Assembly: GCA_973895155.1 (NCBI GenBank)
Contig: OZ316891.1
Span: forward strand, 22,649,884-22,713,883
DNA from: Marsupella aquatica
Lineage: Eukaryota; Plantae; Marchantiophyta
Reading direction: 5' to 3'
DNA length: 64,000 nucleotides
A model generated the notes under the pieces. The model did not search any database, was not told the DNA's origin, and worked only from the letters and a program-made list of their open reading frames with translations. The translations under genes and the position numbers were made by a program. Shown in pieces: positions 3,001-61,870 of the stretch (the first letter of the stretch is position 1; every line of letters begins with the position of its first letter).

Positions 3001-6000
3001 CAATACCCTTAAATACGCTTCAAGGGCCCTAGCATCCCAATCCTGAAACTCGGGAAGCAATGCACCTGGACTCTGTAAGCTTTGTCTAAACCGATAGTCA
3101 TACACGTCCAATGAGTTGAAAAGGATCTGCCATCCAACTCCTCGAATTGTCTTGTTTTGTAGCAGCTGGTACACTTTCTTTCCCGTATCTTCATTTGAAG
3201 CCTGTTCACAAGGTCCCCGCAAAACCAAATTGTAGCTTATCAACACTAAGAAAGTACTCTCCTAAAGACTCTCTTGCACACAGCAAAACCATATCTGCTT
3301 GTGTGTCCCAAGATCTTTACTCGTTATCAAATTGAATTTCGAGCGTGACCCGCACACAAGCTTTGACCGATTATGTAAATGAAACATAGACCAAATGGAA
3401 TCAATTGTACGGCAATGCAAGAAACCAGTAAAACATTCTAGATTTGGAGGCTGGAAACAGAGCCAGTATCTTACAGACCAGCGCTGTAAGCATGTTTAAA
3501 AAGGCCACCAGTGTCACATGGGTAGTATGATCTTCCCCAGCAAAACGCACGAAGTTCCATAGTAGGTCGTTGTCAAGAGTGAGTTCTGGTTCCCTCTGGT
3601 CACAAGATATGGCAGGTTTGAGAACTATGAATCTAAAACCTTGAAAACATTCAACACGACTGGCATGAACCCGAGATCATTCAACCCATACAAATGGCAC
3701 CATCATGATCAGCAACTACGAATTGACTTCACAATTCAAAGAAGGACCAAAACCTTCGGCATGGTCAAAAAGCACCCTAGGTTTACAATCAAATACTGAT
3801 ACAAATTCATTTAAGCATCACTCACCAAACCAGCAGAGGTAGTTCAGCAGAGACGTTTAAACAACAGCAGTCATGTGATCAGTGAACTTGGACAGACCTG
3901 ATATACTTCTGAAATCATGTCCAAAAATGATGTGAATGGCTTCGCTTGTGCTTGTAATCCTTGTTGTTCTGCACGAGCAGCATCATCTGCTAAGGGATCT
4001 TTGATCTCGTGCATGTATGAACCTAGTGCAATCATTGCTGAATCTTTAAGATCTTTTATCTGCATTGAAAGGTTGGCACAACTCAGTATAATGTTAAGAA
4101 GCCGCTGTCAAACTGATGATCACACTCAGAATGTACATTCTATAAGAAATCAGGAAAAAGTTTGGAAACACCTGCAATTTGTAAGCATCCCCAACGAGTG
4201 TAAGGGGTGAAGCTTACCTTTTCATGACCTAGAGGATGAGAGAAGAAGCTTGTAATTAACTTATGCAGGTAGGCATTATACATGAAGATCAAATCTTCAT
4301 CATCATTCTGTTTAATATCAGCAATACAAAGCGTCAGAGGAGGACCTAAAGACTCTATACTGACAGTTGATCGAGTGAGCTGTACAACTGATTAGACCAA
4401 AATTCTGAAAATGAGGCAAGAGCGCGAACTTTCGAATTTCCAAGCAAACAAAATTGGTTATCAAGTGAAAGATACCACTCTAGGTATCTTCCTAGTTGCT
4501 TTCTCGCTCCCAGTTCAAACTATGAAGACAACCTCAACTTAAACAGGATGGGTGAGATTTCCTTTGCGTCATAACATGATATGCCTCGTGACCTACATAC
4601 CTGAAAAGCTGCCGTCTTCAGCACATTGGAGGTGAGAAACTCAAATGCAGTGTGTTCACAGGCCCAGTCAAGACAGGTCCTAGCGTTTGACTCCGCACTC
4701 GGATTGCCTCCACGTGCTGTAGGTCGTGAGGTTAACATCAAGAATATTGCCCACACAAGGCGAATCACACCTGTGAAGCCCTCTGTGGTTGCATTAGTAT
4801 CAGCACCCATAACCTGCACAACAATCAGAAACTTCATTTGTTAGTGTAAAGCTAAGTCTTCCCAATACTACCTCACGGGAACCTTTTTCGAGATCCATTA
4901 TAAAATTCCGAAAGCATCCCACGCAAATCTTCAAACAAATCAAGTATAAGTTTACCATCTTTTGGAAATCTTGATGAAAAGCCGAATCAGAGGAGAGTAC
5001 TTCTCGTCCTCCTCCAAGAGCATCCGACATCAACGAAATCACCAGAGCAAACATAATGGTATATGCAACCTGGCGCACATAAGGTGAAATCATTTAAAAC
5101 CATTATAAAGTTGATTCCAGAATCCAGTTTTTCTCATCAATATGTCAAATCGTGTGCCCCTTGGTCAAATATATAATCCTTGAGATTCAGAAACTTACAA
5201 GTTACACTCCAGAAACAATTTTCAAGTCCTTGAGAACAGCAGTAAAGTCGTAAGCGCAATCTAAGAAACAATTTCCAGTAACAAACACTTTTCAACGATT
5301 TAAGACCAGAAATCCAATCTCCGCAATGGAGTCCAGTAAGGAAGCTTCTTGATCATATCGACTTATTGGGTTGAGGGTTGCTCTACTCACAAAACAATCC
5401 CCACGCCCTGTGCTAGACGCACAGATACAACTATGATCCGTATCAGCTTCAGATTATGGAGAAGAAAATAAAATAAAGATATAGAAATAGAAATAGAAAT
5501 ATACATAAAGATGATCATACGGGTAAGAAAACCTGTAGCTATACTGATTAAGGAATAATTGTTTTACCTGGAACTTCACCGTATCCTGCGTAATATTGGC
5601 ATCCGCACAGCAATCTTTCAGCAGGTTGTACAGATCTTTTACTTCTTGTGGATCTGCATTAAAGGCAAAAGATTCAATGAAAATAATATTTACGTTTTTT
5701 CAAGGATGAACATAACAAAGGATTGTCTTCCGATACTGAATATGTCAAAAAACGATTGCATGGAACTTAGGTTGCGAGGCCCAGAGTACTGCAACTCACT
5801 GAGCCGAACAATAAGACAAGAGAAAACAAGGCACTGGCTGATGCTCAGGCGCTCCCCGTGAGCAATATCCCGGCGTTGCGAAAGTGCACCTCTCGCGTCA
5901 AGGACATAAGGCTCAGTTCCAGGGCCCCCTGAACCTCCTGGCTCTTCTCTATTCAAAGCCTGTACGTGTGGCCGTGGGAGATTACCAATGATACCAATTA

Positions 6001-8506
6001 TAATTCAGTTTGGAAACTTGATCAAAAAGCTACTTTTTCTTAACTTCTATCAGTCCAACCACCCCAAGTTATTCACTGAGGTTGTCACGTACGACAAGAC
6101 TCAATTGATGAGTAGCACGACATTCATAAAACGTTTAAAAAGAGTTATAAGGCTAATCAGCAGCTCTGAACTCTATGAAGAGAGGCTCTATCATATCATA
6201 TTCAAGTAAGCTAGCTGCCAGACATTGGTAGAATTCAGTTATAACCCCTTACAACACAGCAATCACCCCTTAACCTGTTACTTCTAGCAAATAATATGTT
6301 TCACCAAAACATAAATAAATTGACATCTGCAAGTATTTCCGTCTCTGCACCTTTATAAGGGACATAAGCCGCTTCCTGTATCCACCTGCCAGCAAGGTTT
6401 CCAGATATTGGCGCATATCTCCCACGAAATCAGGATCCAAATCCTCGTCCAAAACAACAGCCTGTCTTGCAACAACGCGATATAAACAAATTAAAACGCC
6501 TCGCAAAGCTCCAATGAATACACAGGACAGTGAGAAATTACATCCAACAGCATTACCTTCGATCATCACATGTTGTTGCACCTAGTCCGCAGGATGCATA
6601 CAACTCTACTCTTTGAAGAGAACTTAGCCTGCATTAGAGCTACTACTCTTTTGAAGTGAAGTATCTTTAAATCTGGCATACCTATGCAATGGACTACTTT
6701 CTTCAGTTTGTAGCAACAACGAAGTCCAAGCTGTTGCTCTCCCAAAAAGGGTTGTTTGAGGGCGTCTCTCGTTCGAACGTTGCACATGGAAGGAGATCTT
6801 ACTAGCCCAGCAAACCATAACATTAATAGTAAGCTAAAAAAATGTAGAATCTTACCCGGAGCAATTGTTGCACCGAACTTATTAGTGCTCTCCTTTCAGT
6901 GAACCACAACCCTGCAGCCAGGCGAAGAACTTCCAGAGGCTCCCTTCCCAGTAGATTCCACTGCAACCACAAATAACTATGAGCGGAACGGCCCTGACAT
7001 GGAGTGACCCCCAGTGCAAAGCACCGACCTAACAGGGCCCAAACACTTAGATGAAATACCTCCTGATGAGCAGCCACCAAAAGACTGACGCAGTCAACTT
7101 CGTTGAGATGGTAGTCATCGCTCAATTTTAGAGCCTGCACCGCAGAAGAATTTCATCAAAACAGGACACGTCCACCAGCTGAACAAGCTCAAAACAATAA
7201 TCGCACTGACTTGTTACTTGCATCACGTTATCGGTCACTGTTATCACAGGTAGCAGCTGGAGAAACTTCGGAAACCTGAAATCTTCCTCATAATAGGACG
7301 GGGTTGGAAGCTTCAGCTTACTATCTCAACATCCTGGTCGTCCAAGACGGTCGGAGGCGCATTTGGCAATCTGACCTCTTTTGATAAAACCTGTTGCCTG
7401 TCTTCTGCTTTTGGGCCCTGCGACAACGAGGGAAGAATTGGACGAATCCAGTGCTTTCAAATCCGATGCATGCTGTCCCTGCTGGGAATATTGCGAGGGT
7501 CGTTCCTTTCCAAATTTCACGATAACTACGAATACAAAACATGCCTAGACCTACTCTATTTCGATCTCCAGAGAATTTTACGCAATGTTGTAGGACGTAC
7601 ATGGGGCAACATTTTCGAGCTGGAAGACATGACAGAGGGATAATCACTCTCTTGGAACTCGGTAAACGAATAATGAGTAAAAAATGTTCAACAAAGGTTC
7701 TTATGCACATTGCCTGTCAGTCTAAACTTTCTTTCTAGTTGTAGCTCCTTGTCCCATATCCGAACGGAACACAGATCGCATAAGACATTCTGAATCCTGT
7801 CGAGCGACACGTGCTATGTAGAGGATCTGAGGCCCAAATTCAGTCTCCTTGTATTCGTCGAGAGGACTAAGTGGTTTTATAGAGAGCATCAAATCAAATA
7901 TTTCTGTATCACACAGGAGCTCAGTGCTGGTTGTCTGCCATTTTTTCGTCGATTGCTTTATTATTAAAGTGCTGACGGTAGAGTGCTAACACAGAGCATA
8001 CGAGGAAATAGAGGTGAAATTGCGCACTCGTACTCGAAAGTCAATTTCAAACTTCGGCTAGGACACTGTAATGTAGCGTTTACAGATAGAAGGTTACGAA
8101 TGTCGCTACCGGACCAGCGAACAAGATCAACAATAACACGGGTAAGAAACAGCAGAAATACTAAAACAGATGCAAAGCTGCTGCCCGTCGTGAAATACCC
8201 AAGGACGCATTCCCACAAGACCGTTCCGCCCGACGCTGGAATTTGCCAACGCAGGAGGCAAAATCCACAAAATCTCCTACGATTCCTCAATTGCCCACCG
8301 TAATACTCATTTCTTTAAAAATTTCATCAATTTTACATTCAAGCACCCCAGGGGTGACAGAAACGTACCGGAAAAAGAAGGAAATTCTTCAGGTCGTCAC
8401 TGGAGACGTGGAGAGCATGAGCGAGGTCGGCGCGCTGCTGCGGGTCAGGCTTCGCTCCTCGCAGCGCGGCCTCCACAGTGGCCAACAGGCGGCGATGCGA
8501 AACCAT
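1..8506 (-). CDS. NUP205: Nuclear pore complex protein NUP205, multi-exon; 5' portion, continues past the left edge of the window
   Basis: Exon 1 (8369-8506) encodes MVSHRRLLATVEAALRGAKPDPQQRADLAHALHVSSDDLKNFLLFP, followed by a GTACGT donor. Later exons encode ALKLSDDYHLNEVDCVSLLVAAHQE, WNLLGREPLEVLRLAAGLWFTERRALI, EPYVLDARGAL, GALRNAIAVFV and MSGKVIYRNMMSIL, all resembling plant NUP205. Introns are GT-AG. Confidence 0.9.
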
Positions 8507-8674
8507 GGTCACAGAATCAACCTGTCTGGCCGACGCCACTCTCTCTGAGCTCGCTCAGCCGTTCCACTCAGCGCATCTCACAATGCGCAGCGCGGGAAAC
8601 GAAGAACGAACTGGCACCAGCAGCGGCGTGCCAAGGCAAGCGAGCGAGGGCATGAGGGCACGCTCATCGGCTCA

Positions 8675-8965
8675 TCACAGCTGCTACGTACACACTAGGC
8701 GAGAAGAGGAGAGCTCCTTCGAGGTTTTGGACGAGGGCACGACGCTCATCGACGCGGTGCAGCTGCCGTGGGCAATCTGGGGAACCAAAGTCACGACTCA
8801 ATCACAGCTGCTACGTACATACTAGGCGAGAAGTGAGAAGAGAGAAGAGGGGACCTCATTCGAGGTTTTGGACGAGGGCACAGCGTTCATCGACCATCGC
8901 AGCAGCAGCAGTAGCAGCGGGGCAATCAATCTAGGGAACAAGAGGAGTTCTCGTTCGAGGTTTTG
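8675..8965. repeat. Diverged ~125-bp tandem duplication upstream of NUP205 (two copies plus a partial third)
   Basis: tcacagctgctacgtaca(c/t)actaggcgagaag...ttcgaggttttggacgagggcac occurs at ~8675 and ~8802; ttcgaggtttt recurs at ~8954. Confidence 0.75.
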
Positions 8966-9088
8966 CTGAAGGTTTAGGACGGGCAGGCAGAGGGAGGCAA
9001 TGCGAGGGACGAGAGGGGTCCCAGTTCAAATGCAAGCTTGCCCCCGTCATCAAAGGGTATCGAGTTTCATGCAAGAAGAGGTTGGGGC

Positions 9089-9180
9089 AGAAACCAACCG
9101 GCTTAGGTCAGTTGACCAGGGGATTAGCCTAGAACCCAAGAGGTAGTTAAATCTCCCCTGCACATGCAAGGGGGTATGGA
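9089..9180 (+). mobile_element. tRNA-derived SINE-like repeat, copy 1 (degenerate)
   Basis: agaaaccaaccggcttaggtcagttgaccaggggattagcctagaac... aligns with the reverse complement of 61770-61870, which has A-box and B-box-like motifs. Confidence 0.55.
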
Positions 9181-9736
9181 GCAGCTTATTTAGTAAAGTT
9201 TTTTAATTTTGGTTTTTTTAATTTTTAGCCAGTGTGGCAGACGTAACCTAGGGTTAGTGCTTACCTTACCAACGGACACAATTTCCCGTCGGTACCCTCC
9301 ATTCCCATAATCTTCCCTACAGACACCCGTAACCCCTCTCCAAACATCAATAACCCCCTGCAGAAAGTCATAACGTGTCACTAGAAGTGGCATATTCCCC
9401 ACCATCTGAGAATATCATCCCACCGTTCAATAAACTACATGGTGACATCAGACGGCACCAATCATATCAGACAACACATGGCATCAATTTTAGCAGATTT
9501 GAGTGAAGCAACGCGACCATGCGTAGATGCCAGAATGCAACAACAGACTCCACACAAAATTAATTTACGCAAAAGCTTATGTCTGAGGAAAATCCATGGT
9601 CACTTTATTCATTGAATCATCAAATAATGATCCTTGTTCACAGAATCAACATCCGTAAGATTTACATCAAAAAACTAAAGTCAAGTGATCAACAAGATCC
9701 GTGTTGATCTAAATGTAATTCTCTGTGCTTCTAACT

Positions 9737-12482
9737 CTATGATTGACCATTTCTAACATTCTCCTTGTTGTCGTCATCATCTTTCTTGTTCCCACAAATG
9801 ATGTTAATTGTACAATGCTTGAACTGGTTACCACTCATGCTACTTCCTCTGTAAACCTGAGAACTACTTGATCCTCTAAAATGCTTTGCAGTAGTAGGAT
9901 TCTCTGCCAAGTACGCCTCAAAATTGATGTCATCAGCCTCCTTATGCCACTTGGAGACTTCTTCAATGTGCTCCTTTGCAGTCGACACATTCTCCTGGGC
10001 CTTCTTCGATCTACTATAACTATGCCCCAACCGGAGCTGAGCCTTCTCCAAATCACCTTCCTGTAAACAACAATAATAAAAATTCTCACACGTTGAGTTC
10101 GCAATGCAAGGACCCCAGGAGATAGGGAAATACGACAAAACAAGCACTTCATGCCAATACTTCCAACTGCATTCGAAATCTTGGAATACTGTGCAAAGGA
10201 ACAAGTGGGATCTCACCTTAAGGTCTTTAAGAAACAGGCGGAAGTGAAAACAAAGTCCACGGATAAATCACACACATTCGACCAGCAAATCAACAAACAA
10301 TTGACCAAAAGATATTGGAGCCTATACCTGTATTGTGCTAGTGTTGCTTGTCAATTTAGAACTTATAGTGATGTCCTTGCAGATGATAGGAGGCAACGTG
10401 GTTCCACTCAAATATTGTAGTACATAAAGGGATAACCATTGGTCCAATCAGTGGATTCAATGTTTTTGAGCATCCAATCACGTCGTCTTCCACAAACCGC
10501 TTAGATACTTCTGTAAGTGCAATCTTGTAATTCAAATCAGGTCTTGCAGAAATAAGAGTTATTGCTTCCATTTTCAAGAGTTTGGTTCGGTCGTACCTCT
10601 GATAGCCATCAGCAGTATGATGACTTGAGATCATCATACCCACCTCATCAGGTACACCCTGAGAAGCCATCCACGTAATAAGAGTAACTCGCCCACTCTT
10701 GTTTGTGAACAGATTTGTCGGTAGGCCAACAAGCTGCAACATGGTTTTTAGCCAGTTAGAAGCTCAGTCTCGAGCCACCTTGTGCTTTCTATTATACCAA
10801 GCAATGTCAGTCGGGTTAGTAATTGGACCTAGAAACAAATTTGGCTTAGTTTTAGCCACATCCTCTACTGGTGGGTGTCGCAAGTACTGCTTGATGCACA
10901 AGACCAAATTTGGCTCAAACGAGTGGTACAAGTTTCAAAATTGCTCCTCATTGTAATGACTTAGAGTATAATTGTTGTTTTTGGACTCTCACTCTTCAAA
11001 CCTGAACAGACGCCACAAAAACATCACAAAAACAAAGTTGAGAAGCGCATGCATCAATGTTCACTTCAATGACTTGACAAATGAGTAAAAATTAATCAAG
11101 AAGCAAAAATGTCCTCCTAAACTTGAGTAGAAAGCAAACTCCTCCGCAACATACACTTCCACACCCGAAGGCGAGGCAGGCACACGACTTGCACGTTCTA
11201 TCTAGATTAGAATCTTCAATGCAACGATGCTTTTGGACGTTTCCTCACCTCCTCTAGAAGCGAATTCTTCACCAGATCAAATATGCAGAAGTTCAAAGCA
11301 ATGTAGGGAGCAATGCCTACATTTCTACGTCCAAAAGTAGTTCACACAACTAAGAAGAAAACGATGACAAACCTCCTCAAGAGCTTCTTCCAACTCGTGA
11401 ACGTGGAACGATTAAGCATTTCAAACATTCTAAAGAAAGCAACAGAGTTACCTCACGTACTCCTGTCCCAATTTGTTCACCTCAATTCTTAGATCCTTTC
11501 GTTGCAAATTCCATAGTTCGCCACCACCTCTTTTTCCAAGACAACAGAGACAATAAAATGCAAAATGTTTCTAATAGCCATGTGGGCTGGTAATCTGATG
11601 GTCAATGTCAGCCAACACAATCATTTCCATCTCCTTAGTAATAATCTAAACCTGCACATTGGAGAACTCACAGATTACGACCTTCTCAAATCAAGAAATG
11701 AATACCTGTAGATATTCTCAAAAGAATGCCAGTAGATAAAATCCTTGCCTGCTTCCATTTTTATTTATGTCGTCTCATGCAGACTTCCTTATTGCTGCCC
11801 TGGGAACCAATCGAGTTTTGGTGAAGGCTGAAGGCGAATTGATGTCGAAATTTGTCTCAACCAAACCTTTCGTGGTACCATTCAAAGCTCGAATAACGTT
11901 GGCACACCGAATGATTTGATTTAGGCCAATGATTCATCATGTTCATTAGATTGGAGCTGGGATATGGTAATCCATCTACCTTTATAGCCCTCGAAAATGA
12001 GTGACTGAAGAGTTTATTGAGCTGAACTAATGGCAGGTTCCCTATAGGAAGTGACATATCCCACTGCATGGCTGATCAGAGCTGATCAGCTTGCCTCATT
12101 GCCCATCGATCGTTGTGTTCAGAAGGCTGTTTCTCTCTTCCACGACTAGCCTCCACCAATAGAGGATTACAACATCTCTCAGTTCTGGACTATTGACGAC
12201 ATTGGCAATTGATCTTTCACCCGGTGCAACTACGCCGTAATTCCTTTCCTCTGAAGTATCTGCATTCTGAAGAGTGGGAATGACAACAATACATCCATCA
12301 AATTGAGGTAAATCAGCAAACAAATCAAGAATACGTTCCGTCTCAAGCTCGCCTGCAAGCTCATCAAGAAGGTGCATCTCCAAGTCATTCGAATCTGCTC
12401 CATCATCTTTGATCTTGGCAGGGCTCCATAACTCTCTGGACAGATTTTGATATGATCTGAAATGACTGATATGGATAAGCAA
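9737..12482 (-). mobile_element. Degenerate Crypton-like DNA transposon: spliced tyrosine recombinase (DUF3504-type) pseudogene
   Basis: Minus-strand pieces in order: QLNKLFSHSFSRAIKVDGLPYPSSNLMNM; FYCLCCLGKRGGGELWNLQRKDL (R at 11529-11531); GT-AG intron 11002-11451; FEE*ESKNN (K at 10980-10982); CIKQYLRHPP...LFLGP...WYNRK; LFTNKSGRVT (K/HxxR); ISSHHTADGYQRYD (H, and Y at 10593-10595); C-terminal GNQFKHCTINI. Several in-frame stops and a frameshift are present. Confidence 0.75.
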
Positions 12483-13769
12483 AACTCTCCAAGACCTTCA
12501 TCAAGTGATCAATGCATTGACTCCAATCGTCTTTTGCAAATGTCTTATAAGAGAGAACACTCATTGCAACGTACAAACCTGAAAATGCTTGAACTAGTGA
12601 ATGGAACCAATTCAGCAGGCTGCATCGTACGTGTAGCAAGGCGAGGAAATTTGAATTTTGTGCCCGACAGCACTTCTTTGCGATCTGCCATGCTCAACAA
12701 GTTGCAATTGATTTCAAATCTTGCCCCGCCAGCGCCTCAGCCTCGACAATCGTAACTCACCTCAAAAAATGAATTGACCGTGCTCATCCCGTCACGGCTA
12801 CACACTCTTTTTTGAATGTCTCTTCCTTGCTTGGATGTTATTGGTTGGACCGTTAGTAGCCGGTAAGATAATCATTGACCCTAGATTAGTATGGTTATCC
12901 CGATCTAACGGTCGTTACTAGCGTTCAACCGGCCCTCCCCCCGGCCCTCCCTTGTTCCTCCCCAAACTCTCCCGGCTACGCTGATCAAGTCAGGGTCAGA
13001 ACTTGGTCGGGCAGGTTACACGCCAGTAACCTCCCTGTAGATCGGTATTATCTTACACATTAGCAACTCTAAGGGAGGAGATGCTAGGAATATTCTTTGT
13101 TACTTTTTTCTGGATTACATCGCCACCAGATATCCCTAGATTTAAAAATGACCATTAGATTCTGGAAAAAGGGGTCCATGATTAGGTGGGAATGTGGCAA
13201 ATGACACAAAATCTAGCGAATGTTAGCCAAAAGTAGCAAACACTTTTTGGTGAGGTGGAATTTGGCTAAATTTGAACTTAAACAAATATGCTGGTATGGA
13301 GGGTGGGGTGTAGTGGTTGGAGTATTGGTTTCTCTTTAGCATGGGCTGGTCTGTTAATTTTGGAGCTCTAGTTCAACCCCCTCTCCCTCGTGGTCTGGGT
13401 CTCTGTTGGACGTACCCCTGGGTATGATCCCTTGTGGCTACTGTACAAAGGCACATGCTCCCGGAATAAATTGTCTATAAATTGTCTATCCTCTGTTGGA
13501 TGGGTCTGCTCTTGGTTTCAAGAGCAAAAAGAGGTTGGGCAAGAGGGGGCCACCGTAAACTCCACCCTCTTGTTACCTCCCTTTTGTTTGCTCTCGTACA
13601 TGAATTATTTTCATTTCACACTCGCTTTGTATATCTTTTTCATTTTTTGTTGGGGAAGGAAACCTGCCTGAGGAAACCAGCCACGAGGGAGTTTATATAC
13701 AATGTATGTTTTAGGATATCCAGTGTACTACCTTTCACATGATTCTTTGAAAAACTTTGAAAAAGTTGT

Positions 13770-19364: not shown

Positions 19365-21554
19365 CTATAGTCGATAAAGAGGAGTGATACCCAAAAGTTT
19401 AAAGCACTGCCTCATGACAACTGCTGTCGCCTCGCAAAGTAGCAAGCGACTAGATTGCTCCTCCGTACCCAACACTTTGCAATTCGTATAAAAGTCGGTA
19501 TACCTGTCCGCCAAGTTATAAACGTACTCGCACAACGTGTTTGGAAGATAATCATGAAGACAATCCTCGATAACCTCTGCGAATTGCAGAATATGCACAG
19601 CAAGCTGCCTTTCACTTTTGTGATTCAAAGCCAGTGAGGAAGTCCGCTTCAACTCCTCCATATTTTCGTTTGAATTTACGAGAATCGAGCAAATTCTTGT
19701 GTGCGCATACAAAAGATAAACAGCCGTGTTGCCCTTCTGATCAAGCATCTGGTCAAAGTTGAAAGTGTAATTTGTAAGCCGATTGTTCTTCAAGTCGGCA
19801 TATTTCACAGCACCATAGCCTAAAGCAGCAGCCGCTTCCTCCACCTCCTGCGCTGACCAGTCCACTGACTTTCCTTTCTCCTTAATTACCGTTTTACTCC
19901 GAGCCTTGGCCTCATCTAGCAAATCGACAAGTCGGACGACTTCTGAGCTTCGGGTTCGGAACCGCTTCCCGTCTTCACCAAGCACCAGGCCAAAGCCCAA
20001 ATGCCGTGCCGAAGGTTTGTCGACACCGACTTCGAGCCACCCAGCTCGTTTTGCTGCTTTGAAGACCATGTCAAAATGCTGATGCTGCCCAACATCTGTG
20101 ATGTATATTAGCCACTCAGCCTTCTCCACGTTCAGCCGGTACCAAAGTGCCGCAAGATCAGTGCTTGCGTAGTTAAAGCCTCCATCACTTTTCACAACAA
20201 TGAGGGGGATAGGTTGGCCATCAACTCGGATGACTTTTGCACCCTCGCTTTCTTCAACTAGTCCTTTGTCAGTCAGCTCCTGAAGAACGTCAGCAATATA
20301 TGGATTGTAGAAGCTTTCACCTTTTTCCTCGAGGGTAACGTCTAGACGCTTGTAGACTTGAGCAAACTCAAGCCGACTGATATCACATATTTTCGTCCAC
20401 GCTGCTCGGTAGGTAGGGTCTCCTCCCTGAAGAAGAACAACAGCTTTCTGGGACTTCAACTTGAACTCCGCATCCTGATCAAATCGTAGTTTGGCGGATT
20501 TATAGAACGCCTGCAAGTCTCCAATAGCTTGATCACCAATGTCCTCCCAGTTGGGAAACAACTCGAACATAAATTCAATGAGCATCCCGAACTGAGTTCC
20601 CCAGTCACCAACGTGATTACGGCGCAAGACCTCCACATTACAGTACTCCAGCATTCGAGCCACACAATCCCCTATGATGGTAGACCGCAAATGGCCCACG
20701 TGCATTTCTTTCGCAATGTTGGGAGACGAAAAATCAACTACAGCTCGTTGCACGGGTAGCCTCGGAGCCCAAGTGTCCACTCCATTGATCAGCATCTTCA
20801 TTATTCTCTCTTCGATCCAGTCCTGCGAGAGGACAATATTCACGAACCCCGGCCCTGCAATGCTGGTGGATGTCACCACAACACTCTGGGGCAAATTCTT
20901 CGCGATTGCCTGGCCGATGGCATTCGGATTTTTGAAGGCCCCCTGCGCCGGTGTTCCTTTAATCTTTGACCAAATCCCCATCGCATTGTTACACTGATAA
21001 TCACCGAATTTAGGGTTCTTACAAACCTCTACCAAGGCCTCCACTTCGGTCAGCTCCGGCACGGTCACATTGATCGCCTCCTTCATCAATCTTTCAACTT
21101 GTCGCCGCACGCTCTCCTCTCCCGCTCCAACTCCAGCTCCTCCTCCTCCTCCATCTTCAGTTGCATTCTCGTTCGCCATACCTACCGTGCCCGCCGCCGC
21201 CATTCCTCGTACACCCGTGACAGCCCCGTCCCTCGCACTCCTCCGAACGCCGATGGATTCCGCAAATCTGCCACACCTCCTCGAGCGCAGAAGAAGCGTA
21301 CCAGCAGAAGGCGATGCGTGAGCTGAGAGTAGCGTCTCCTCTGCCTTGCTGCTGGAACGAGCGAGCACCAAGGTTTGGCTGCGGGTTTTGTGAGGAGCTG
21401 CGGAGGATGGGGGTCTCTGGAGAAGGAGAAGAGAAGTGGCGGCTGACGTTGAGGTTGAGGTTTTCGAAATTCGTTTTGCTGCGGCTGCGAGCGCCGCCGA
21501 GGAAGAGGAGGGATGTGCGGGGCAATGCACGAGGAGCAGCATCGACAGTCTCAT
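19365..21554 (-). CDS. ArgRS: Arginyl-tRNA synthetase with N-terminal organellar transit peptide; single uninterrupted ORF
   Basis: Motifs FGDYQCNNAM, VVDFSSPNIAKEMHVGHLRST (HIGH-type), NHVGDWGTQFGMLI, GKRFRTRS and KGNTAVYLLYAHTRICSI. Likely start is MRLSMLLL (ATG 21554) with a Ser/Arg/Ala-rich presequence; the ORF-track extension upstream crosses a CT microsatellite. Confidence 0.95.
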   Translation of the reverse strand: MRLSMLLLVHCPAHPSSSSAALAAAAKRISKTSTSTSAATSLLLLQRPPSSAAPHKTRSQTLVLARSSSKAEETLLSAHASPSAGTLLLRSRRCGRFAESIGVRRSARDGAVTGVRGMAAAGTVGMANENATEDGGGGGAGVGAGEESVRRQVERLMKEAINVTVPELTEVEALVEVCKNPKFGDYQCNNAMGIWSKIKGTPAQGAFKNPNAIGQAIAKNLPQSVVVTSTSIAGPGFVNIVLSQDWIEERIMKMLINGVDTWAPRLPVQRAVVDFSSPNIAKEMHVGHLRSTIIGDCVARMLEYCNVEVLRRNHVGDWGTQFGMLIEFMFELFPNWEDIGDQAIGDLQAFYKSAKLRFDQDAEFKLKSQKAVVLLQGGDPTYRAAWTKICDISRLEFAQVYKRLDVTLEEKGESFYNPYIADVLQELTDKGLVEESEGAKVIRVDGQPIPLIVVKSDGGFNYASTDLAALWYRLNVEKAEWLIYITDVGQHQHFDMVFKAAKRAGWLEVGVDKPSARHLGFGLVLGEDGKRFRTRSSEVVRLVDLLDEAKARSKTVIKEKGKSVDWSAQEVEEAAAALGYGAVKYADLKNNRLTNYTFNFDQMLDQKGNTAVYLLYAHTRICSILVNSNENMEELKRTSSLALNHKSERQLAVHILQFAEVIEDCLHDYLPNTLCEYVYNLADRYTDFYTNCKVLGTEEQSSRLLLCEATAVVMRQCFKLLGITPLYRL

Positions 21555-21571
21555 TCTTTTCTCCGATTGGA

Positions 21572-21572
21572 G

Positions 21573-21603
<31 letters not shown>

Positions 21604-21604
21604 C
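21572..21604. repeat. (CT)n/(GA)n microsatellite in the ArgRS 5' leader
   Basis: ctctctctttctctctctctctctctctctccc is seen directly. Confidence 0.9.
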
Positions 21605-21747
21605 CTCGAATCTCGATGACACAGCAGAAGGTGTTCGTTTGCGTTGTATTTTGCTTGTTTTCCCGTTGTATTTTGCTTGTTTTCCCGTTGTATTTTGATT
21701 GATTTTGCGGCGGATTTCGGACGTTTCGGAGGGGGAGAGTGAGAGAG

Positions 21748-22960
21748 TAGTCATGTACTCCCACGCTCCCAATCTACGGTTTGGGAGTGGACGGCTCCAA
21801 CTCTCGAGGCAGGGCTAGTGTGTGGGTCTCATGAGGCTCTAAGTGAACAGTAATTTGGGAGTGGACGGCCCCAGCACTCGAGGCAGGGCTAGTGTGTGGG
21901 TTTCATGAACAGTAATTTGGGCTCTTAATGAACAATAATCTGGGAGCGGACAACCACGGTGAAAGATGACAATTATAACCTCACATGTGACCTTTCGGAG
22001 GGGCAAGAGTGTGAAAGTAGTCATGTACTCCCAGGTTCCCAATCTACGGTTTGGGAGTGGACAGCTCCAACACTCGAGGCAGGGCTAGTGTGTGGGTTTC
22101 ATGAGGCTCTTAGTGAACAGTAATTTGGGAGTGGCCGACCAAGGTGAAGGATCACAATTATAACCTCACATCCCTGACCTGACCTCACTGGCCCAACTTC
22201 AATAATAATAATAATATTTTTTTTCCAATTCGACTCTTTACTGAAGCCAGTGCAAAAGGAATCATAGCAAAGGGAAGGTCTCATCCACCAGGATGCACCA
22301 TCTTATTTATCAAGCGCAAACCCCAAGCTACAGTTGGGGTCTAGGCTTCTAGAGTGAAGCCTCTACACCGTAACTCTATGGCACACCGACTCACGGGTAT
22401 GACATGGGTATGATGTATGTCAAATGATGATCATGTATATTTTTTGTCATGACTTCTATTTTCATTCAGAGAATGAGCATTCATGCTTGTTAATACAATA
22501 TTTTTCCTAAAATAGTGGAGTGCATAGTCCCAGGCCCCCCCTGCCCCCCCCCCCTACACCCCCTGTAATGAAAAGAGGACCCCATGACCCCATGAAGGAT
22601 CGATGACCAATATATACCTCATATTCCTGACCTTTCTTTTTTGATTCTGTGCTTTCTCTTTACAATCCAATTCCTTACTGGAACAGTGAAAAAGGTAAAG
22701 AGCAAAGGGAAGGCCTCATCCACCGGGTTGCACCATTCATAGATAAATTGTCCTAAAATTGTGGAGTGAGTAATCATGTCTTCCCAGGCTCCCAATCTAA
22801 GATTTGGGAGTGGATAGCCCCATCACTTAACCAGGATCAACTGTGCAGGTTTTACATGAGGCTCTCATTGAACAGCAATTGGGGAGTGGATGACCCCTCA
22901 TAATGGAAAAAAGAATAACCCTATCAAGGATGACAAGTATAAACCCTTACATCCCTGACC
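21748..22960. repeat. Locally duplicated repeat family upstream of ArgRS
   Basis: gtagtcatgtactccca..ctcccaatctacggtttgggagtgga...gggctagtgtgtgggt.tcatgaggctct occurs at ~21748 and ~22017, partially at ~21855, and diverged at ~22770; gcaaagggaagg..tcatccac recurs at ~22267, ~22702 and ~23300. Confidence 0.75.
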
Positions 22961-24409: not shown

Positions 24410-24833
24410 TTGCCCGGCAAATAGAGGCTTTAGAGTCCGTCAACCGGCAACTTGTCACCCGGACTGTCCCGGCCCGGCCGATCTTGACTTCCCGGCCCGG
24501 CCCGGCCATGACCTCCCGGCCCCGCTGGCTCACACCCCGCCCCGACCCTGTCCCGGCCCGACCCCGGCCTCTCCCGGCCTCTCCCGGCCCGGCCCCGGCC
24601 TGTCCCGGCCCAGTCCCCGGCCTGTCCCCGGCCTGTCCCCGGCTTGTCCCGGCTTGTCCCGGCCTCTCTCGACCTGTCCCCGGCCTCTCCCGGCCCGACC
24701 CCCGGCTTGTCCCGACCTATTCCGGCCGGTCCCTGCCTATCCCGGCCCGGCCTCGCCCTGTCCCGGCCTATCGCTGCCCGGCCCGGCCTGTCCCGGCCCG
24801 GCCGGCATTTGGGCCGATTTTTGCCCGGCAAAT
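24410..24833. repeat. GC-rich (CCCGG)-based low-complexity array bounded by a 13-bp direct repeat
   Basis: Dense cccgg/tgtcccggc units from 24458 to 24803; ttgcccggcaaat at both 24410-24422 and 24821-24833. Confidence 0.85.
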
Positions 24834-30254: not shown

Positions 30255-31769
30255 CTACTCTGAGTCATCGTTATGGACAACGGGTTGCGAGTCCTCGCCA
30301 CTGTGTTGCGCACTAACTCTGTCAAAATACTCTGCAAGCTGTTTGATGACCTGCTCTTTATCCTTCTCAGGGTTGAAAATGTCCGAGACAGAGTGACTCT
30401 CGCCAATATTCTGTTTCAAATCAGGTCCATGGAGATCGACAAACTCTTTGATCAATTTATCATAATCCTTCTTTGATCTGTTCTCGTCCCACCCATGGGG
30501 GTCATACTGAGCTTTCACGTATAGAATAGCTCCAGTGACCATCACTCCCAACGAAACCATGGCTATCATAGAGTTGTAGGCATCATTTCTGGAAGCATAA
30601 ACCCACCCTATAGCAGCTGCAGCTACCGCCACAGGAGTAATAGACACGGCGAGACTGTCAGATATGGAAGTCATTACGGCCGTGGTCAATACTTTGCTAG
30701 CAATAGGAGTAGCAGCCCGTGTAGCCAGACCAGCGAAAGGACCAAGTCCCACGGCACCTTTGCCTATGGTCGCAAACTTCTCCAGCAACACGCTGATCTG
30801 CTTGGTGTACACTTCTTTTGAGGCCAGATTCTGCTTGAGAGATTTTTTGAAATTCTTCGGAACTCCCCAGGTTTGACACAAAGCTCTGCAAAGTCCTGTT
30901 AAAAGTGAGCCCACGATAACCTGATGAGGGCCAGGGACGAGTCCAGCTGGAGACGCCCCGATGGCAGCTTCCTTGTAACCTACAATCTCCTTAGCTGAGA
31001 GTCTAATCTTCTCCTGGAAGTCCACAGCTTGGGCAGCTGTCCATGCAGCCTGCAGCTCACTACTATCCAGATGTTGTTGAGTCTTCACAGACACCAGAGT
31101 CAGGGCGTCATCATCAACTCGGTTGTGCTCGACATCATTTGACACCTTCAGTATATTGTTCAGCACTCTCTCCTTGCTGCTTACACCATTCAGAAGCTCA
31201 CCCAGGTGAGCCTCAACATTCTTAGAGTACTCCACCCCCTCAGGATCCTCATCATTATGTGTCACAATAAGCAAAAGAGGAAGCTCTCCATAGCTTCCAA
31301 TTTCGGCCAACACCTTAGCATTCAATTCGTTTTGGTCATCCAACGCAGAAAGAACGAACCACACTAAGTGCACCCGCTCGGAGAAATCTGTCTTTTTCTG
31401 CCTTGATTTCAAGAACTTCTCCAGCTCCTTCAGTTCTAGGTCAGTGTTCCCTATTGCATGCTTTAACACTCGTTTTACCAAACTTTTCTTCGAGGAGTTT
31501 GGGTCCTTAACCTCCGGAGGTGCAATCGCTATGTCACACTCATGAATCTTCAGAGGTAGAGTTGGGTGGTTCCACTCCTTCGTGATGTCATGCTTGCTGC
31601 TTTTCTCGGGGCTTTGCTTGTTCGTCAATCCCAGTAAGAGCCTGATTAGCGTTGTTTTCCCTGCATTGGGCCTGCCGATCACGAGAATTCTCAATGTTCC
31701 GAATACGTCCCCGGACGTCAATTGCTTGTACTGTGCCTTGGAGACGTTTCCGTCCACGTTGTCCCCCAT
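30255..31769 (-). CDS. Intronless 504-aa P-loop G-domain protein with a hydrophobic/helical C-terminal half
   Basis: Long ATG-initiated ORF with Walker A LRILVIGRPNAGKTTLI, HDITKEW, ERVHLVWFVLS, G4-like LIVTHND, and Ala/Gly-rich hydrophobic helices in the C-terminal half. Confidence 0.85.
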   Translation of the reverse strand: MGDNVDGNVSKAQYKQLTSGDVFGTLRILVIGRPNAGKTTLIRLLLGLTNKQSPEKSSKHDITKEWNHPTLPLKIHECDIAIAPPEVKDPNSSKKSLVKRVLKHAIGNTDLELKELEKFLKSRQKKTDFSERVHLVWFVLSALDDQNELNAKVLAEIGSYGELPLLLIVTHNDEDPEGVEYSKNVEAHLGELLNGVSSKERVLNNILKVSNDVEHNRVDDDALTLVSVKTQQHLDSSELQAAWTAAQAVDFQEKIRLSAKEIVGYKEAAIGASPAGLVPGPHQVIVGSLLTGLCRALCQTWGVPKNFKKSLKQNLASKEVYTKQISVLLEKFATIGKGAVGLGPFAGLATRAATPIASKVLTTAVMTSISDSLAVSITPVAVAAAAIGWVYASRNDAYNSMIAMVSLGVMVTGAILYVKAQYDPHGWDENRSKKDYDKLIKEFVDLHGPDLKQNIGESHSVSDIFNPEKDKEQVIKQLAEYFDRVSAQHSGEDSQPVVHNDDSE

Positions 31770-34700
31770 GATCTAATGCCTGCTTAGCTAATCACAGCAC
31801 GAGCAACATACAAAGAGGAAAAACCGGAGAGACAGTAGCAAGAAATCCCCAACAGTTTTCGCCCTAGATTTCAACTCCACCTACGCTCAGCTTCTAATCT
31901 GACAATCAATCAAACCTCTGGGGGGCAGTAAGGAGATGAAGAAAGAGCCATCCACTACTCCCAACTGATTGCAATCCTCGCTTCAAGACATCGCCCAGAG
32001 AAGCCGAGAAACGCAGCCGTATATAAACAACAGTTACAATTTCCCCCAAAGAAGATGTACACCTCATAAGCACGGAAGCGAGAGGCAATCAGGGACCCAG
32101 GCAAAACCAAAAATCCAAGATCGGATGCACAAACCTCACACCCTTAGAAACCTAGATTGTATGCACGCGTCCTGAGATCCGATCCAGGCCTGCGCACCAT
32201 GCAACAAAAAAGGCTGTAGAGGGACACATCATATCTTCAGCGTACTGCACAGAGGCCCCACAAACTGGTCGGTGTTTTACTCAAGTCACCTCGAAACTAT
32301 CTTCTACAGCACACTCTATTTTACTTAACCCCTCACACAGCATTCATACTGTCAATTACACGGTCCCAATCCGCATTTGAGTACAAAGATGAGAATTTTG
32401 GTGTTCTTCATCAGTAATCAGTAGTGCCCGGGATTTGCTCTCCAGACTGATGTGGCACTCGCTCATCAGTCACGACCAATTCAATGTACAGCAGACATTG
32501 CAGCCTCGGAATCGGTACAGCACAAAGGTCGTATGTGGGTCAGGCTCAGGCTCTTCTGTGCATGGACATGCAGGTTCTCCACTGAAGAACCTTACCTCGA
32601 GGCCATCAAAACTGTGGTGGCAAAAGGAGTAGACATGGCTCTCCACAGAAGAGCTTTGCTTTGTGGCCATAAAAAAAACTCTGCAGCCTTTTTTTCTCTT
32701 CTTTCAAAGCTATAGCCAAAAGCCAAGAGTAGCAAAACGATTCTCGATGAGAGTTAGCAGACCTCATTTATTGGTGTGTATTGGGTCCCGCCATTCATTG
32801 TTGCCCCTTAGTGTAAGCTTGGGGTCTCCATAACTGCACATCAAAATATGACATACTGTGCATGACATCCTTTCATGCCATGATAAATCTTGTTATTTTG
32901 AATACCTTGATATTTTCTTCAAATCAATGAATGCACACCCTATGTTACCACATTTTGATGTGACAGGGGTAGACTTGCCATAAAGATCCAAGTATGCATG
33001 TCTTCACATCAATCTTGCTTTTAATGCTGATTAGCAGTGAGTAGCCCATGCGCATCTGCGGGGTGCCCACTTGGGTCAGATTCTGATATTAGGCAAGATA
33101 TTAGCCGCAAAAGTGGGTTCATTCAATCCAATTGCACTTAGAAAAATTCTGAGGCAGTGGGCAGCAGGCTGGGGCAGGTACATGAAGGAGGCATACAGGC
33201 AACGGTCTCGATCTTGGTCTCGATCTTGCCTTTCGAGCTAAATCACATTTCTTGGTCAATGCTTGGTTGATTGCCTTGAAGGTTTTGTGAGCTTGGACTA
33301 TGGCAATGAAGCAAGCAAGCATAGCACTCTTCATTGCGGCAAGTAAGTGTCGGAGTTCAGGCTTCATTCGTTGACCAGCTTTTGCACATTTTTACCCATT
33401 CTTGCAAGGGGGGGGGGGGCATGCAACATAGAGGACATGTGTGCTACATTTCCACTGCCTACCCCCATTTCCCACAGCAAGAATACGAGGCAAACTGGGC
33501 GAATGCTAAGACTTTCTTTCCATGCACCCTATAAATCCCCGCCCCCCTTCCGTCCCCCCTCCCCCCCATTCCGGCAACCAGGGGTGACACATATGGAGTA
33601 TACTGCTTCAAGAGCTGCACACTAGCTTGTTTTGGACAGCCTTTGGCAGATGCAAAGATAATTGAAAGCTGCTCACATTAATTACTCAAAAATGGACAAC
33701 CATAGGCTCAGGTTTGAACCCCATCCCAACCATTTTGCTTGACTACAATTTTAACTACTGGATAGGCTCCCAGATGGGATCTCCATCCAAGATATTTTGC
33801 TGGAATAGGACTTAAAGCTTGGATGGGATTTAGATCCCAAACATTTTTGCTGGAATAGGATTTTAAAGCTCAGAGAATCTATGGAACTATGAAGTTTTAC
33901 TAGGTTTGATATGGATTCAGGGTACAACCAACAGAGAATTTTAGGATCCTATCCTAGTTCAGAGGTTTGGATGGGATCCCATCCGAGCTTGTGGTTTTTT
34001 AGAAAGGCAAACAAATGACAAAATACGACTTCAAAAGGAAGACACGTGTCTAGTTGCAACAAGCCCCTCAATGTTGCTGTTGACAACAAAAGAGTGACAA
34101 TGCAATTTTGTGTGGCCCACCAGCCTACAAATTGGTAGCGTCTTTGCTTCGTTGATTGCCACAATTGCTTGTTTGACAAAGCTCATTGTAAACTTGTTAT
34201 AAAGTGAGGGTGACACGTACACTGGCTAGCTTAATGTAGATTTGCCAAGTGGCTTAATTTCGTCCAGCACATTTGTTTGCTATGGTGACACAACAACTGC
34301 TGGGTCAGGCGCTCATCATATTGTAGTAAAAGTATTGTTGGGGCATCTTGAGGTACTGTGCTCCAGTTGCCATCATTGGGCCACCTTGAGATAATCCCTT
34401 ATTTATATATCCCTTTGTCCAGATTGTATACAGAAGGGAGGATAAGGTTGCCAAAACTGAATATTATTGCCTTTCAAATTATAGAGCAAGCCGTATCAGC
34501 AAAAGGTCGTGGCTGTTATCTTGCAGTTTACAAAAAATTCCGTACTGGTTTCTCCTTAGCCCCTTATTAGTGGGCTTTGGTCCAACCCTTTGTCCCTCCT
34601 GGGTATGACCCAGAGTATGACTCCTCTTGTGGGCTACCCTATGGAGGTGGCTGCAGTTGCTAGTATATTAATTTTCTGTTGAATAGGTCAACTTTTGGTA

Positions 34701-35199: not shown

Positions 35200-35868
35200 C
35201 GTCAAGTTAATGCGCCCCCACTTTCCCGGGGCGCCGTACTCTGCCCGTCCTAGTCCCCGACGCTGCTGCCCGCTCTGGCCTGAGTTTGCCAGAACATAAA
35301 CCAATAGTCTAACATTTGGTCGCCCGATCCGGCCCGATCAACTTTGTGCCATCGACTTCAGGTTTGTGTTTTGGCACCCATCACTTTTTAGGCTCCCCTT
35401 GAACACTTAGACTCTATCATGAAATAGGTATGACTCCATTGGAAAGAAGTGTTGCCAAAACATAAACCATGACTCCATCAAGAAGAAACATTTGACAAAA
35501 CATCAACCAAGACTCTATCAATCATGACTCTTAACCAAGTACTAGGCTCCCTTGAACACTAAGACTCTATTACAAAGCAAGTATGACTCTGTGGGAAATA
35601 AGTGTTGCCAGAACATAAACCACGACTCCACAATGAAGAAGTAGATGACACAAAGTCAATCGGGCCGGAGCGCGCAACAAAAAGTGATGGGTGCCAAAAC
35701 ATAAACCCAAAGTCGACGACACAAAGTTGATCGGGCCGGAGCGGGCGACAAAATGTTAGAGTATTGGTTTATGTTCTGGCAAACTCGTGCCGGAGCGGGC
35801 AGCAGCATCGGGGAGTGGGACGGGCAGTGTACGGCGCCTCGGGAAAATCGGGGCGAATTAACTTGACG
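35200..35868. mobile_element. Foldback/MITE-like non-autonomous element with ~190-bp terminal inverted repeats
   Basis: 35200-35388 (cgtcaagttaa...tggcacccatcactttt) is the imperfect reverse complement of 35678-35868 (aaaagtgatgggtgcca...ttaacttgacg). The spacer contains a direct duplication (aggctccc...ttgaacact.agactctat at ~35390 and ~35544). Confidence 0.85.
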
Positions 35869-46279: not shown

Positions 46280-47310
46280 GGCTGACAAGATAAGATGCCA
46301 CTGAGCCACAACGTAACCATACAAATCTACCACGCATAAGTGCAAGATAAGATGCATAAGTGCAAAACAAGAGGCATGGAAGCCACAATGTAGACATACA
46401 GTCTACCATGCATAATTGCAAGATGAGATGTCAGTGAGCCATAATGTAACCAAACAAGTCTACCAAGCATAAGTGCAAAACAAGAGGCACGGAAGCCACA
46501 ATGTAGACATACAGTCTACCATGCATAATTGCAAGATGAGATGCAAGTGAGCCTTAATGTAACCAAACAAGTCTACCAAGCATAAGTGCAAAACAAGAGG
46601 CACGGAAGCCACAATGTAGACATACAGTCTACCATGCATAATTGCAAGATGAGATGCAAGTGAGCCTTAATGTAACCATACAAATCTACCCAAATCCATG
46701 GCTGGATTAGGGCGGGTTTGTGGGGTGTGTGTGGTGTTTTGGCTTGGGTGTTGGGCCCTGTTTGTGGCCTGGGTGGCTTTCGTCTCCTTGCGTGATATGG
46801 ACGGGTCTCTGCGTCCCTTTTTGGAAAAAAAAAAAAAACAAGGTGCATGAGTGCAAGATAAGATGCAAGTGCTCTACAAGGTAAGCGTACACTTTACCGT
46901 GCATGAGTGCAATGTAAGATGCATAAGTGCAAGTTATGATGCACATGAGCCACAAATATAAGCATACAAACCTACCATGCATAAGTGCAAGATAAGATCC
47001 ATAAGTGCAAGACATGTGGCACAGGAGCCACAATGTAGGCATACAGTCTACCATGCATAATTGCAAGATGAGATGCAAGTGAGCCAAAATATAACCATAG
47101 AAGTCTACCGCTTATAAGTGCAAGATAAGATGCAAGTACGCTAGAAGGTAAGCATACAGTTTACCGAGCATGAGTGCAATATAAGATGCATAAGTGCAAG
47201 TTAAAATGCACATGAGCCACAATGTAAGCATACAGTCTACCGTGCATAAGTGCAAGATAAGATGCAAGTGAGCTACAAAGTAAACTTACCGTCTATCATG
47301 CATAACTACA
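46280..47310. repeat. TGCA-rich minisatellite (~56-bp subunit, ~113-bp dimer), interrupted at ~46690-46840
   Basis: caagtctaccaagcataagtgcaaaacaagaggcacggaagccacaatgtagacatacagtctaccatgcataattgcaagatgagatgc repeats at 46455 and 46568; many gtgcaagataagatgca units. Confidence 0.9.
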
Positions 47311-49720: not shown

Positions 49721-50380
49721 ATCCGCCAGAGTTTTTTCTAGCCTTGAAATTTTCCAAATTCCACCTCACTTAAAAGTCTTAGCCACTTTTGGCATACACT
49801 TCCAGGTTTTTTAAGCTTTTGTTAGAGGTGTCTTGCATGTTACCGTTTCCGTATTGAGGCCCTATTTATATTTAATGTCCGTCAACATATTAAATGTGAA
49901 GAATTTTGTGCCTGAATTCCCTCATTAGCCAGGCTTCACTGTAGTTAAAGTGGAGGCTGAAGGGCAAATGCCAGAAACTTTCCACCCCTTCAGGTCCCAA
50001 TCTCAATGTGAATTTTGAATAACACAAATAGACTCACTTTACACTAGCCTTTCAAGGTGCCAGGCCCAGTGACACATAGCAGCAAAGTGCTGTGGTGCAC
50101 CCTCACCACTTTTTCCCATCATTTTTGGGAGAATTGAGGGCAGACTACATGTTATAAGCCCCCGACACAGTTTCCCACATAGCCACAAACCCCATTAGCC
50201 AGAATCTGACAGTTTGAATTAAATTGAGGAAAATCTAACCTTCAGAAATTAGTCTATGAAAATTGGATAAGATATTCTTAGCATAGTTTTGTTCACTGGC
50301 TAATGTGACTTTAGTCAGGCTGGTAGATAAGAAAAAACAACTTTTTACTAACCTGTCCCCTAAACTACCCAATATTAACA

Positions 50381-61769: not shown

Positions 61770-61870
61770 CATCCCGCCCACACTCATGTGTGCGGTGGGG
61801 GCATTGAACTTGGGACCTTGCAGTTCCAGCCTCATCCCCTAGCCAACTGACCTAAGCCAGTTGGTTTCTT
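61770..61870 (-). mobile_element. tRNA-derived SINE-like repeat, copy 2
   Basis: The minus strand reads aagaaaccaacTGGCTTAGGTCAGTTGGctaggggatgaggctggaactgcaaggtcccaaGTTCAATGCcccc, with A-box/B-box-like spacing; homologous to 9089-9180. Confidence 0.6.

Follow-up and report, generated by a model that had tools for sequence, protein, structure and literature searches.

A decayed, very probably Crypton-type element in the liverwort Marsupella aquatica and the inverted internal copy of its joined ends

A 64,000-nucleotide stretch of the liverwort Marsupella aquatica (GenBank assembly GCA_973895155.1, contig OZ316891.1, positions 22,649,884 to 22,713,883 of the forward strand; hereafter the window) holds a broken tyrosine-recombinase gene. 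The best explanation is that this gene belongs to a dead copy of a 3.8-kb multi-copy element, that the recombinase is the sole gene detected in it, and that the element likely moved as DNA, recombining site-specifically at a 4-bp ACGT core, and likely by way of a folded single strand. We give this reading as a whole a probability of roughly 0.55. Its parts differ in strength: that the element is a DNA element of Crypton type is close to certain, and the folded-strand route of transposition has about even odds. An earlier note on this DNA had proposed a Crypton relic at 9737-12482. Those coordinates cover most of the gene, but the element is larger (9241-13061), and its ends, an inverted internal copy of its end-to-end junction, its spread to lycophytes and ferns, and its domesticated-looking relatives all go beyond that note.

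What is the evidence for a single gene? Seven tyrosine-recombinase motifs lie on the minus strand in collinear order, at 11982 (KVDGLPYPSSNL), 11537 (GKRGGGE), 10988 (ESKNN), 10706 (TNKSGR), 10631 (ISSH), 10607 (GYQRY) and 9823 (FKHCTINI); all those named in the earlier note were located, in the order that it gave. Six of the seven occur once in the whole window, and ISSH occurs five times. The set is not due to chance, because the Calypogeia fissa protein P0007 aligns with the window (tblastn) as four collinear pieces (E 2e-69, 5e-50 for two of the pieces, and 4e-9). The gaps between these pieces coincide with the introns of the window gene. The comparison confirms that the minus-strand pieces make up one predicted tyrosine-recombinase gene, now decayed, with seven in-frame stops and about four frameshifts, and its exons fill most of the 3.8-kb element. 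Joining across GT-AG introns, as had been proposed, holds for introns 2 and 3; intron 1 has a GC donor in the window copy. The intron sites recur in relatives. A phmmer search with P0007 over 1.84 billion representatives gave 561 matches at E up to 0.001; among the 150 listed, 9 break at P0007 residues 332-340, the site of intron 1, and 21 start or stop at residues 397-403, the site of intron 2.

The earlier note had put the fragmentation of the open reading frame (ORF) down to stops and introns. Both are present, but the account was incomplete, as frameshifts also break up the gene. The frameshift near 12172 is a frame switch in the P0007 alignment; those at 11928, 11757 and 10421 are indels relative to other copies of the element, the last being a 4-bp insertion in the catalytic exon. 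Four of the seven stops in the homologous exons are TGA facing an Arg of P0007, consistent with CpG decay, which had indeed been suggested for some of them. The observed/expected ratio of CpG is 0.50 in the catalytic exon vs 0.89 in the neighbouring arginyl-tRNA synthetase gene. The stop at 11573 is a sense codon in other copies, and the GKRGG of the window copy is GIRGG in other copies.

The gene product is supported as a predicted Cre-like tyrosine recombinase related to CryptonA/DUF3504. Word-indexed protein searches matched only Calypogeia and one further protein; the catalytic exon, with its stops as X, gave a single match among 194 candidates, namely P0007, at 61% identity, and the window gene is ~60% identical to C. 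fissa proteins. The modelled fold is that of P0007, a ~60% identical relative, rather than that of the broken window copy. An AlphaFold model built from a 24-sequence alignment is confident over most of residues 210-575 and disordered in the tail. A Foldseek search with this model places Cre and its variants at ranks 1-22, followed by QRICH1 at 23, and VIA-align gives Z 17.3 for XerA and Z 16.6 for Cre over 301 residues. In the ESM Atlas, residues 210-580 of P0007 fall among DUF3504/phage-integrase clusters (feature score 0.98, structure TM 0.79). The 24-sequence alignment, which holds the named plant proteins together with close relatives, gave a plant profile that aligns over 347 columns with one built from 17 DUF3504-scoring relatives (hhalign probability 100, E 2.6e-52), and the Riccia relative P0088 exceeds the Pfam DUF3504 cut-off (31.7 vs 29.7). 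The fold and the profile match support the Crypton/DUF3504 identity given in the earlier note. A sequence search of the PDB returned nothing significant, with QRICH1 at E 0.54.

The six catalytic positions of the window copy are R, K, K, R, H and Y, in register. In terms of the R-H-R-Y tetrad, both Arg and the Tyr are present (plus the Lys and the second His), and the first His is Lys. Most plant-side rows are similar: in 22 of 28, K or R stands in for the first His of H-x-x-R, vs 17 of the 22 other rows with H, and the complete catalytic set is found in 11 of the 28. No C-terminal GCR1_C, C48 or DDE domain was detected, with zero Pfam families in P0007 or in the element frames. Likewise, Pfam found no reverse transcriptase (RT), RNase H or transposase in any of the six read-through frames of 9241-13061, a scan of limited sensitivity because the recombinase itself was missed there too. 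The absence of RT, RNase H and TIR transposase asserted earlier is in line with this, the flanks having been screened via the ORF list and eight selected ORFs only.

The ends of the element were mapped by comparing the region with contigs from four DNA runs (X1-X4), two of the window organism (A) and two of a relative (B). The element lies within a high-copy host repeat, the right part of which has a summed depth of 1186 vs about 20 in the unique flanks (run X1), although summed depth is not a copy count. High-copy repeat contigs in all four runs join 9237-9239 directly to 13062-13068. These empty copies read GGCA-AATGTC-AGCA, where the six letters equal in length the G-ACGT-T that the window would have without the element and one core. 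Because the empty copies are of equal length, the element lies between ACGT and ACAT without having lengthened its target. Other copies of the element match as far as 9241/9243 on the left (two contigs in each of X4 and X3) and as far as 13061 on the right (X1, X2), with unrelated flanks beyond. Terminal inverted repeats or long end-to-end repeats were not among the matches listed; the left end matches the internal copy described below and not the right end. The long copy pieces listed differ from the window copy by roughly 6-12%. Several distinct, diverged contigs cover most positions in all four runs, which fits a copy number of a handful per genome. Finally, in organism B a 3938-nt contig tracks the unique flank over 5436-9224 and then resumes at 13070. 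The element is absent from the orthologous locus of B, since one contig joins the two positions. In a copy of organism B the left end is tandemly repeated, with joints at 9269 and 9286 returning to 9244 (window 9244-9286).

The earlier note had favoured a mobile element over a single-copy host gene, and the multiple copies, the sharp ends and the lack of the element at the orthologous locus of the relative uphold that choice. A pseudogene of a domesticated host gene that was never mobile is barely credible. Domesticated-looking relatives do exist in Marchantia and lycophytes, but a host pseudogene would fit poorly with sharp ends common to several copies, with a surrounding host repeat that lacks it in its other copies, with the absence of the element from the orthologous locus in B, and with the retention of all six catalytic positions.

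The host repeat itself, which the element interrupts, is ~610 bp long and interspersed. It also occurs in shorter forms, with 9134-9136 joined to 13301-13303, and the window holds incomplete copies at 49744-49793 and 61823-61869. Against Rfam the repeat gave only a chance-level snoRNA match, below the gathering score, so a tRNA-like head, considered for this repeat, found no support there.

The two ends of the element, when joined, match the reverse complement of an internal stretch, 12862-12917, near the 5' end of the coding strand. The alignment score is 52; the maximum in 1000 dinucleotide shuffles is 34 (none reaches 52), and the same alignment against 30 other blocks of the window reaches at most 26. 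Within the copy, 12889-12917 corresponds in mirror image to the 13056 end and 12862-12888 to the 9244 end, leaving the junction bases ACG unpaired. When all end pairs are scanned blind (13030-13109 against 9200-9269), the best score is at r=13056 and l=9244, which falls within the core mapped independently from the contigs. The junction stem is Watson-Crick at 37 of 46 positions and continues as a hairpin over 12889-13056. Folding of the joined ends gives -43.6 kcal/mol for the minus strand (z -4.8) and -34.7 kcal/mol for the plus strand (z -3.7; 100 shuffles). A short inverted repeat, GGTTAC-6-GTAACC (13014-13031), was considered as a double-stranded recombinase site and set aside, as it falls inside one arm of this longer hairpin.

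How might such an element have moved? A spliced mRNA would give the recombinase protein. On a displaced strand, probably the coding strand in replication, the internal mirror copy would pair with both ends simultaneously, so that they would meet in a stem that leaves about three core bases unpaired. The recombinase would then cut and rejoin at the core, yielding a circle whose joint could refold on the mirror copy. The folded joint would recombine with a double-stranded (A)ACGT(T)-like target in a single strand exchange, and replication or repair would finish the insertion. The outcome would be one core at each end, no true target duplication, and the possibility of a rise in copy number; later CpG decay and indels would have killed the window copy. 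The folded-strand route would account for the exact register of the junction, for its unpaired core and for the gain of copies. Integron integrases recombine folded single strands, and CTX phage integration proceeds likewise. In integron attC cassettes and CTX phage, as here, the site would be a folded single strand with unpaired bases, but those systems are bacterial, and the route proposed for the element is read from sequence only.

The same Crypton-type element could instead have followed the classical Goodwin route, with double-stranded excision to a circle and re-integration, in which case the junction copy would act as a second binding site on double-stranded DNA, an accessory arm site or an operator in the promoter region, and would not pair with the ends. 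We regard this as possible, with a chance of about one in three. It fits the data reported for CryptonF in the relevant part of PMC9977147; the inverted junction copy lies ~170-230 nt upstream of the putative ATG, which is compatible with a binding site; and the types of mismatch show no clear strand choice. Nevertheless, a mere binding site need not copy both ends in exact junction register minus only the core bases, nor need it extend into a 168-nt hairpin. No end-to-end (circle) joint was seen among the joints shown, and contigs drop rare forms.

An internal complementary region (ICR) that pairs with both termini is a hallmark of DIRS-1, as described in the section of PMC8969392 drawn on here. 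Could the element be an RT-less DIRS-1-type derivative, copied from RNA by an RT in trans and using its ICR as DIRS does? A gene model from Adiantum nelumboides, P0087, joins a recombinase fragment to an RT fragment, as would suit such a history, although we read it as a chimeric gene model, and Pfam found RT in only 1 of the 59 relatives scanned. The ends also lack terminal inverted repeats, the recombinase profile is DUF3504-like, and the ICR-like copy is near the 5' end, whereas that of DIRS-1 is at the 3' end. Spliceosomal introns are kept at conserved positions, and no intron-less joint was found: 0 of the 15 joints shown (of 20) fit an intron's ends. The introns at positions common to relatives, together with the lack of intron-less joints, argue for a DNA rather than an RNA route, and a DIRS derivative is improbable. 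The likeness to DIRS-1 (PMC8969392, PMC13465315, each as far as the parts used here go) lies in the tyrosine recombinase and in an internal segment that is complementary to the two termini; the RT/RNase H, inverted terminal repeats and 3' ICR of DIRS-1 have no detected counterpart in the window element, which keeps introns and has its copy near the 5' end.

How widely is the family distributed? Thirty of the 150 listed relatives were looked up, and all 16 that carry an organism name come from seed-free land plants: four from liverworts (Calypogeia, Marchantia and Riccia twice), one from a moss (Ceratodon), four from lycophytes (Selaginella twice, Diphasiastrum twice) and seven from ferns (Adiantum). 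There was no seed plant or hornwort among these 16, a sample that is not exhaustive. The nearest named relatives are from Calypogeia, which agrees, indirectly, with the bryophyte-grade host that the earlier note had proposed. The Pfam DUF3504 cut-off was passed by 19 of 42 scanned relatives, drawn from the more distant ones. Could the element be contaminating or recently transferred fungal or animal DNA, such as Glomhopper of a mycorrhizal partner? DUF3504 Cryptons are abundant in Glomeromycota, which colonise bryophyte thalli (PMC13465315, in part). Contamination or recent transfer is very unlikely, however, as one X1 contig (4000-9311) runs from flank into element with zero mismatches, and the 16 named relatives are seed-free plants throughout. 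An ancient transfer may still have taken place, as the tree described below includes no labelled fungal sequences. Locus searches of metagenome or viral contigs gave no confirmed relatives.

A 50-row tree was built from relatives of P0007, leaving out proteins that cover <60% of the core profile and 20 near-duplicates or isoforms. The window copy groups with P0007/P0008 (support 100/100); a plant-side group of 23 rows has support 93/97. Calypogeia sequences occur in two distinct subclades, a pattern suggestive of old families that coexist. The tree gives no donor and no formal nesting because it is unrooted, seeded from P0007, and holds no labelled CryptonA/F/S/I, DIRS or fungal references. 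An intron-less member of 819-843 aa with the full catalytic set, P0023/P0160, occurs on 12 contigs of up to 10 kb and is a candidate young element; a locus search did not retrieve its DNA.

Several points weigh against the folded-strand Crypton reading. First, the Pfam DUF3504 profile scores neither the window copy nor P0007. Second, the 21 DUF3504-type rows of the tree form a separate clade (100/99), and the plant side stands beside them, not nested within. Third, the orthologous B locus also lacks about 29 flanking bases (9225-13069 are gone), so it is not a precise empty site. Divergence between the A and B flanks is about 2-4% in the pieces listed, below that among element copies, and the B locus may for this reason reflect imprecise excision and not an allele that predates the insertion. 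Fourth, the mechanism is deduced from sequence alone, and no activity, circle or transcript was observed. Fifth, the folding z-scores of the joined ends refer to a region picked after the match was seen. Sixth, both strands fold, and the stem mismatches favour neither, with three G.T wobbles on the plus strand and two on the minus. Finally, the stem evidence comes from the ends of one decayed copy, which allows no covariation test.

Some relatives look domesticated. The Marchantia protein Mp5g04240 (P0034/P0163), labelled 'DUF3504 domain-containing' in UniRef, belongs to a 90% cluster that spans M. polymorpha and M. paleacea; it has lost the second catalytic His and kept R, K, R and Y. We consider it a candidate domesticated gene. 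A second case involves two Selaginella paralogues and a Diphasiastrum protein (P0068, P0075, P0083) together with P0182. These four have lost nearly all catalytic residues and form one clade (100/100), and the lycophyte proteins and P0182 share an N-terminal domain at 36-50% identity. The ESM Atlas likens this lycophyte domain to the heads of XRCC4/XLF/PAXX (0.88, 199/256 features), a lead only. The combination of an XRCC4/XLF/PAXX-like head with a dead recombinase is likely an ancient domestication. A broader scenario can be drawn up, in which the lineage dates back to the origin of land plants, persists in liverworts, mosses, lycophytes and ferns but has disappeared from seed plants, transposes by a folded strand splinted by its mirror copy in the manner of bacterial integron cassettes, and was domesticated at least twice (Mp5g04240 and the lycophyte fusion). 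This fuller history is doubtful; if true, the lycophyte fusion would be a transposon-derived DNA-end-joining factor.

The closest known systems differ from the element in instructive ways. Cryptons have short direct repeats that match their targets, and a circle intermediate has been proposed for them (PMC3212892, in the passages drawn on here). The animal CryptonA/DUF3504 elements of Kojima and Jurka (2011, the same source) are alike in having a single tyrosine-recombinase gene, no RT, no TIR and a record of repeated domestication, and the match extends to the full-length profile, in which R, K, R, H and Y line up. The hosts named in those passages are animals, fungi and stramenopiles, with no land plant among them, and the authors found no terminal repeats in animal Cryptons; the window element is bounded by a 4-bp core on each side and contains an inverted junction copy. 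It differs further in the first His, mostly K or R on the plant side, and in its score under the Pfam cut-off. Glomhopper, the CryptonA of Glomeromycota, shares a DUF3504-type recombinase with catalytic residues and is often intron-bearing, low-copy and mostly decayed; it is fungal, and its boundaries and repeats were not definable according to the portion of PMC13465315 used. The same portion describes DUF3504 as widespread in Opisthokonta, and six plant names had no match in one supplement of that paper. CryptonF-1_cRei of Chlamydomonas reinhardtii has a terminal motif, CACCG, that fits its target CAYCG, comparable to the ACGT core of the window element, and it is active, with clean excision yet copy gain. 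It belongs to the CryptonF group of a green alga, and an internal junction copy is not mentioned in the relevant part of PMC9977147.

Why does the element matter? First, the literature, as far as the sources were covered, places CryptonA/DUF3504 in animals and fungi and green-lineage Cryptons only in Chlamydomonas; the family described here forms a branch of its own, present in four groups of seed-free land plants and largely missed by Pfam. The literature search found no paper on land-plant CryptonA/DUF3504 elements or on a Crypton internal junction copy; Repbase and a later Kojima review, which lay outside it, may list plant Cryptons. Second, CryptonA ends are hard to define and the transposition route is unproven, and the mapped ends, the 4-bp core and the junction mirror offer a concrete test substrate. 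Intact relatives, such as Calypogeia P0007 and Adiantum P0024, could be used for such tests. Third, a Cre-like plant recombinase with a short target would be of interest to genome engineers. Fourth, the domesticated-looking plant relatives parallel animal ZMYM/QRICH1, and the model species Marchantia polymorpha carries one of them.

Table 1. Features of the element and the surrounding host repeat (window positions).
Feature	Position	Strand	Basis
Whole element including both 4-bp core copies, about 3.82 kb	9241..13061	-	contig joints, copy ends, junction scan
Left short direct repeat ACGT, likely crossover core	9241..9244	.	sequence
Right short direct repeat ACAT, likely ACGT after CpG decay	13057..13060	.	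sequence; another copy diverges past 13061
Left part of high-copy host repeat	9092..9240	.	depth rise, loose ends at 9092, joints spanning element
Right part of host repeat	13062..13522	.	depth and loose ends at 13522
Predicted long terminal hairpin, 168 nt, 5' end of coding strand	12889..13056	-	folding z -3.40 minus, -2.82 plus
Internal inverted copy of end-to-end junction (ICR-like)	12862..12917	-	alignment score 52
Putative first exon, from ATG 12691	12579..12691	-	splice signals and reading phase only, without homology support
Putative GT-AG intron after first exon	12578-12457	-	splice signals and phase only
Exon: acidic N-terminal region and core-binding domain (KVDGLPYPSSNL); 2 stops; frameshifts near 12172, 11928, 11757	11749..12456	-	
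Intron 1, GC-AG in window copy, 97 nt	11652..11748	-	P0007 spliced at identical place
Exon with first catalytic Arg (GKRGG); 2 stops	11452..11651	-	motif and homology
Intron 2, GT-AG, 450 nt	11002..11451	-	P0007 alignment and splice signals
Catalytic exon: K (SKNN), K-x-x-R (NKSGR), H (SSHH), Y (YQRY); 3 stops	10328..11001	-	
Intron 3 (putative), GT-AG, 267 nt	10061..10327	-	splice signals; downstream exon aligns with P0007 tail
Last exon: FKHCTINI motif and stop codon	9737..10060	-	P0007 tail, E 4e-9

Elsewhere in the window, the arginyl-tRNA synthetase gene (19365-21773) is one uninterrupted frame of 802 codons with an intron-free coding region, and other neighbouring genes encode a PPR-SMR protein and LEA-like proteins. 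A single-exon ORF of 505 codons at 30255-31772 has a GTPase-like domain at its N-terminus (MMR_HSR1, E 3.9e-6) and otherwise matches no clear family. Repeats include a G+C-rich tandem array of CCCGG-type units (24464-24810), an array of 56/113-bp units (46286-47298), and a pair of 190-bp inverted repeats at 35200-35868 that resembles a miniature inverted-repeat transposable element.

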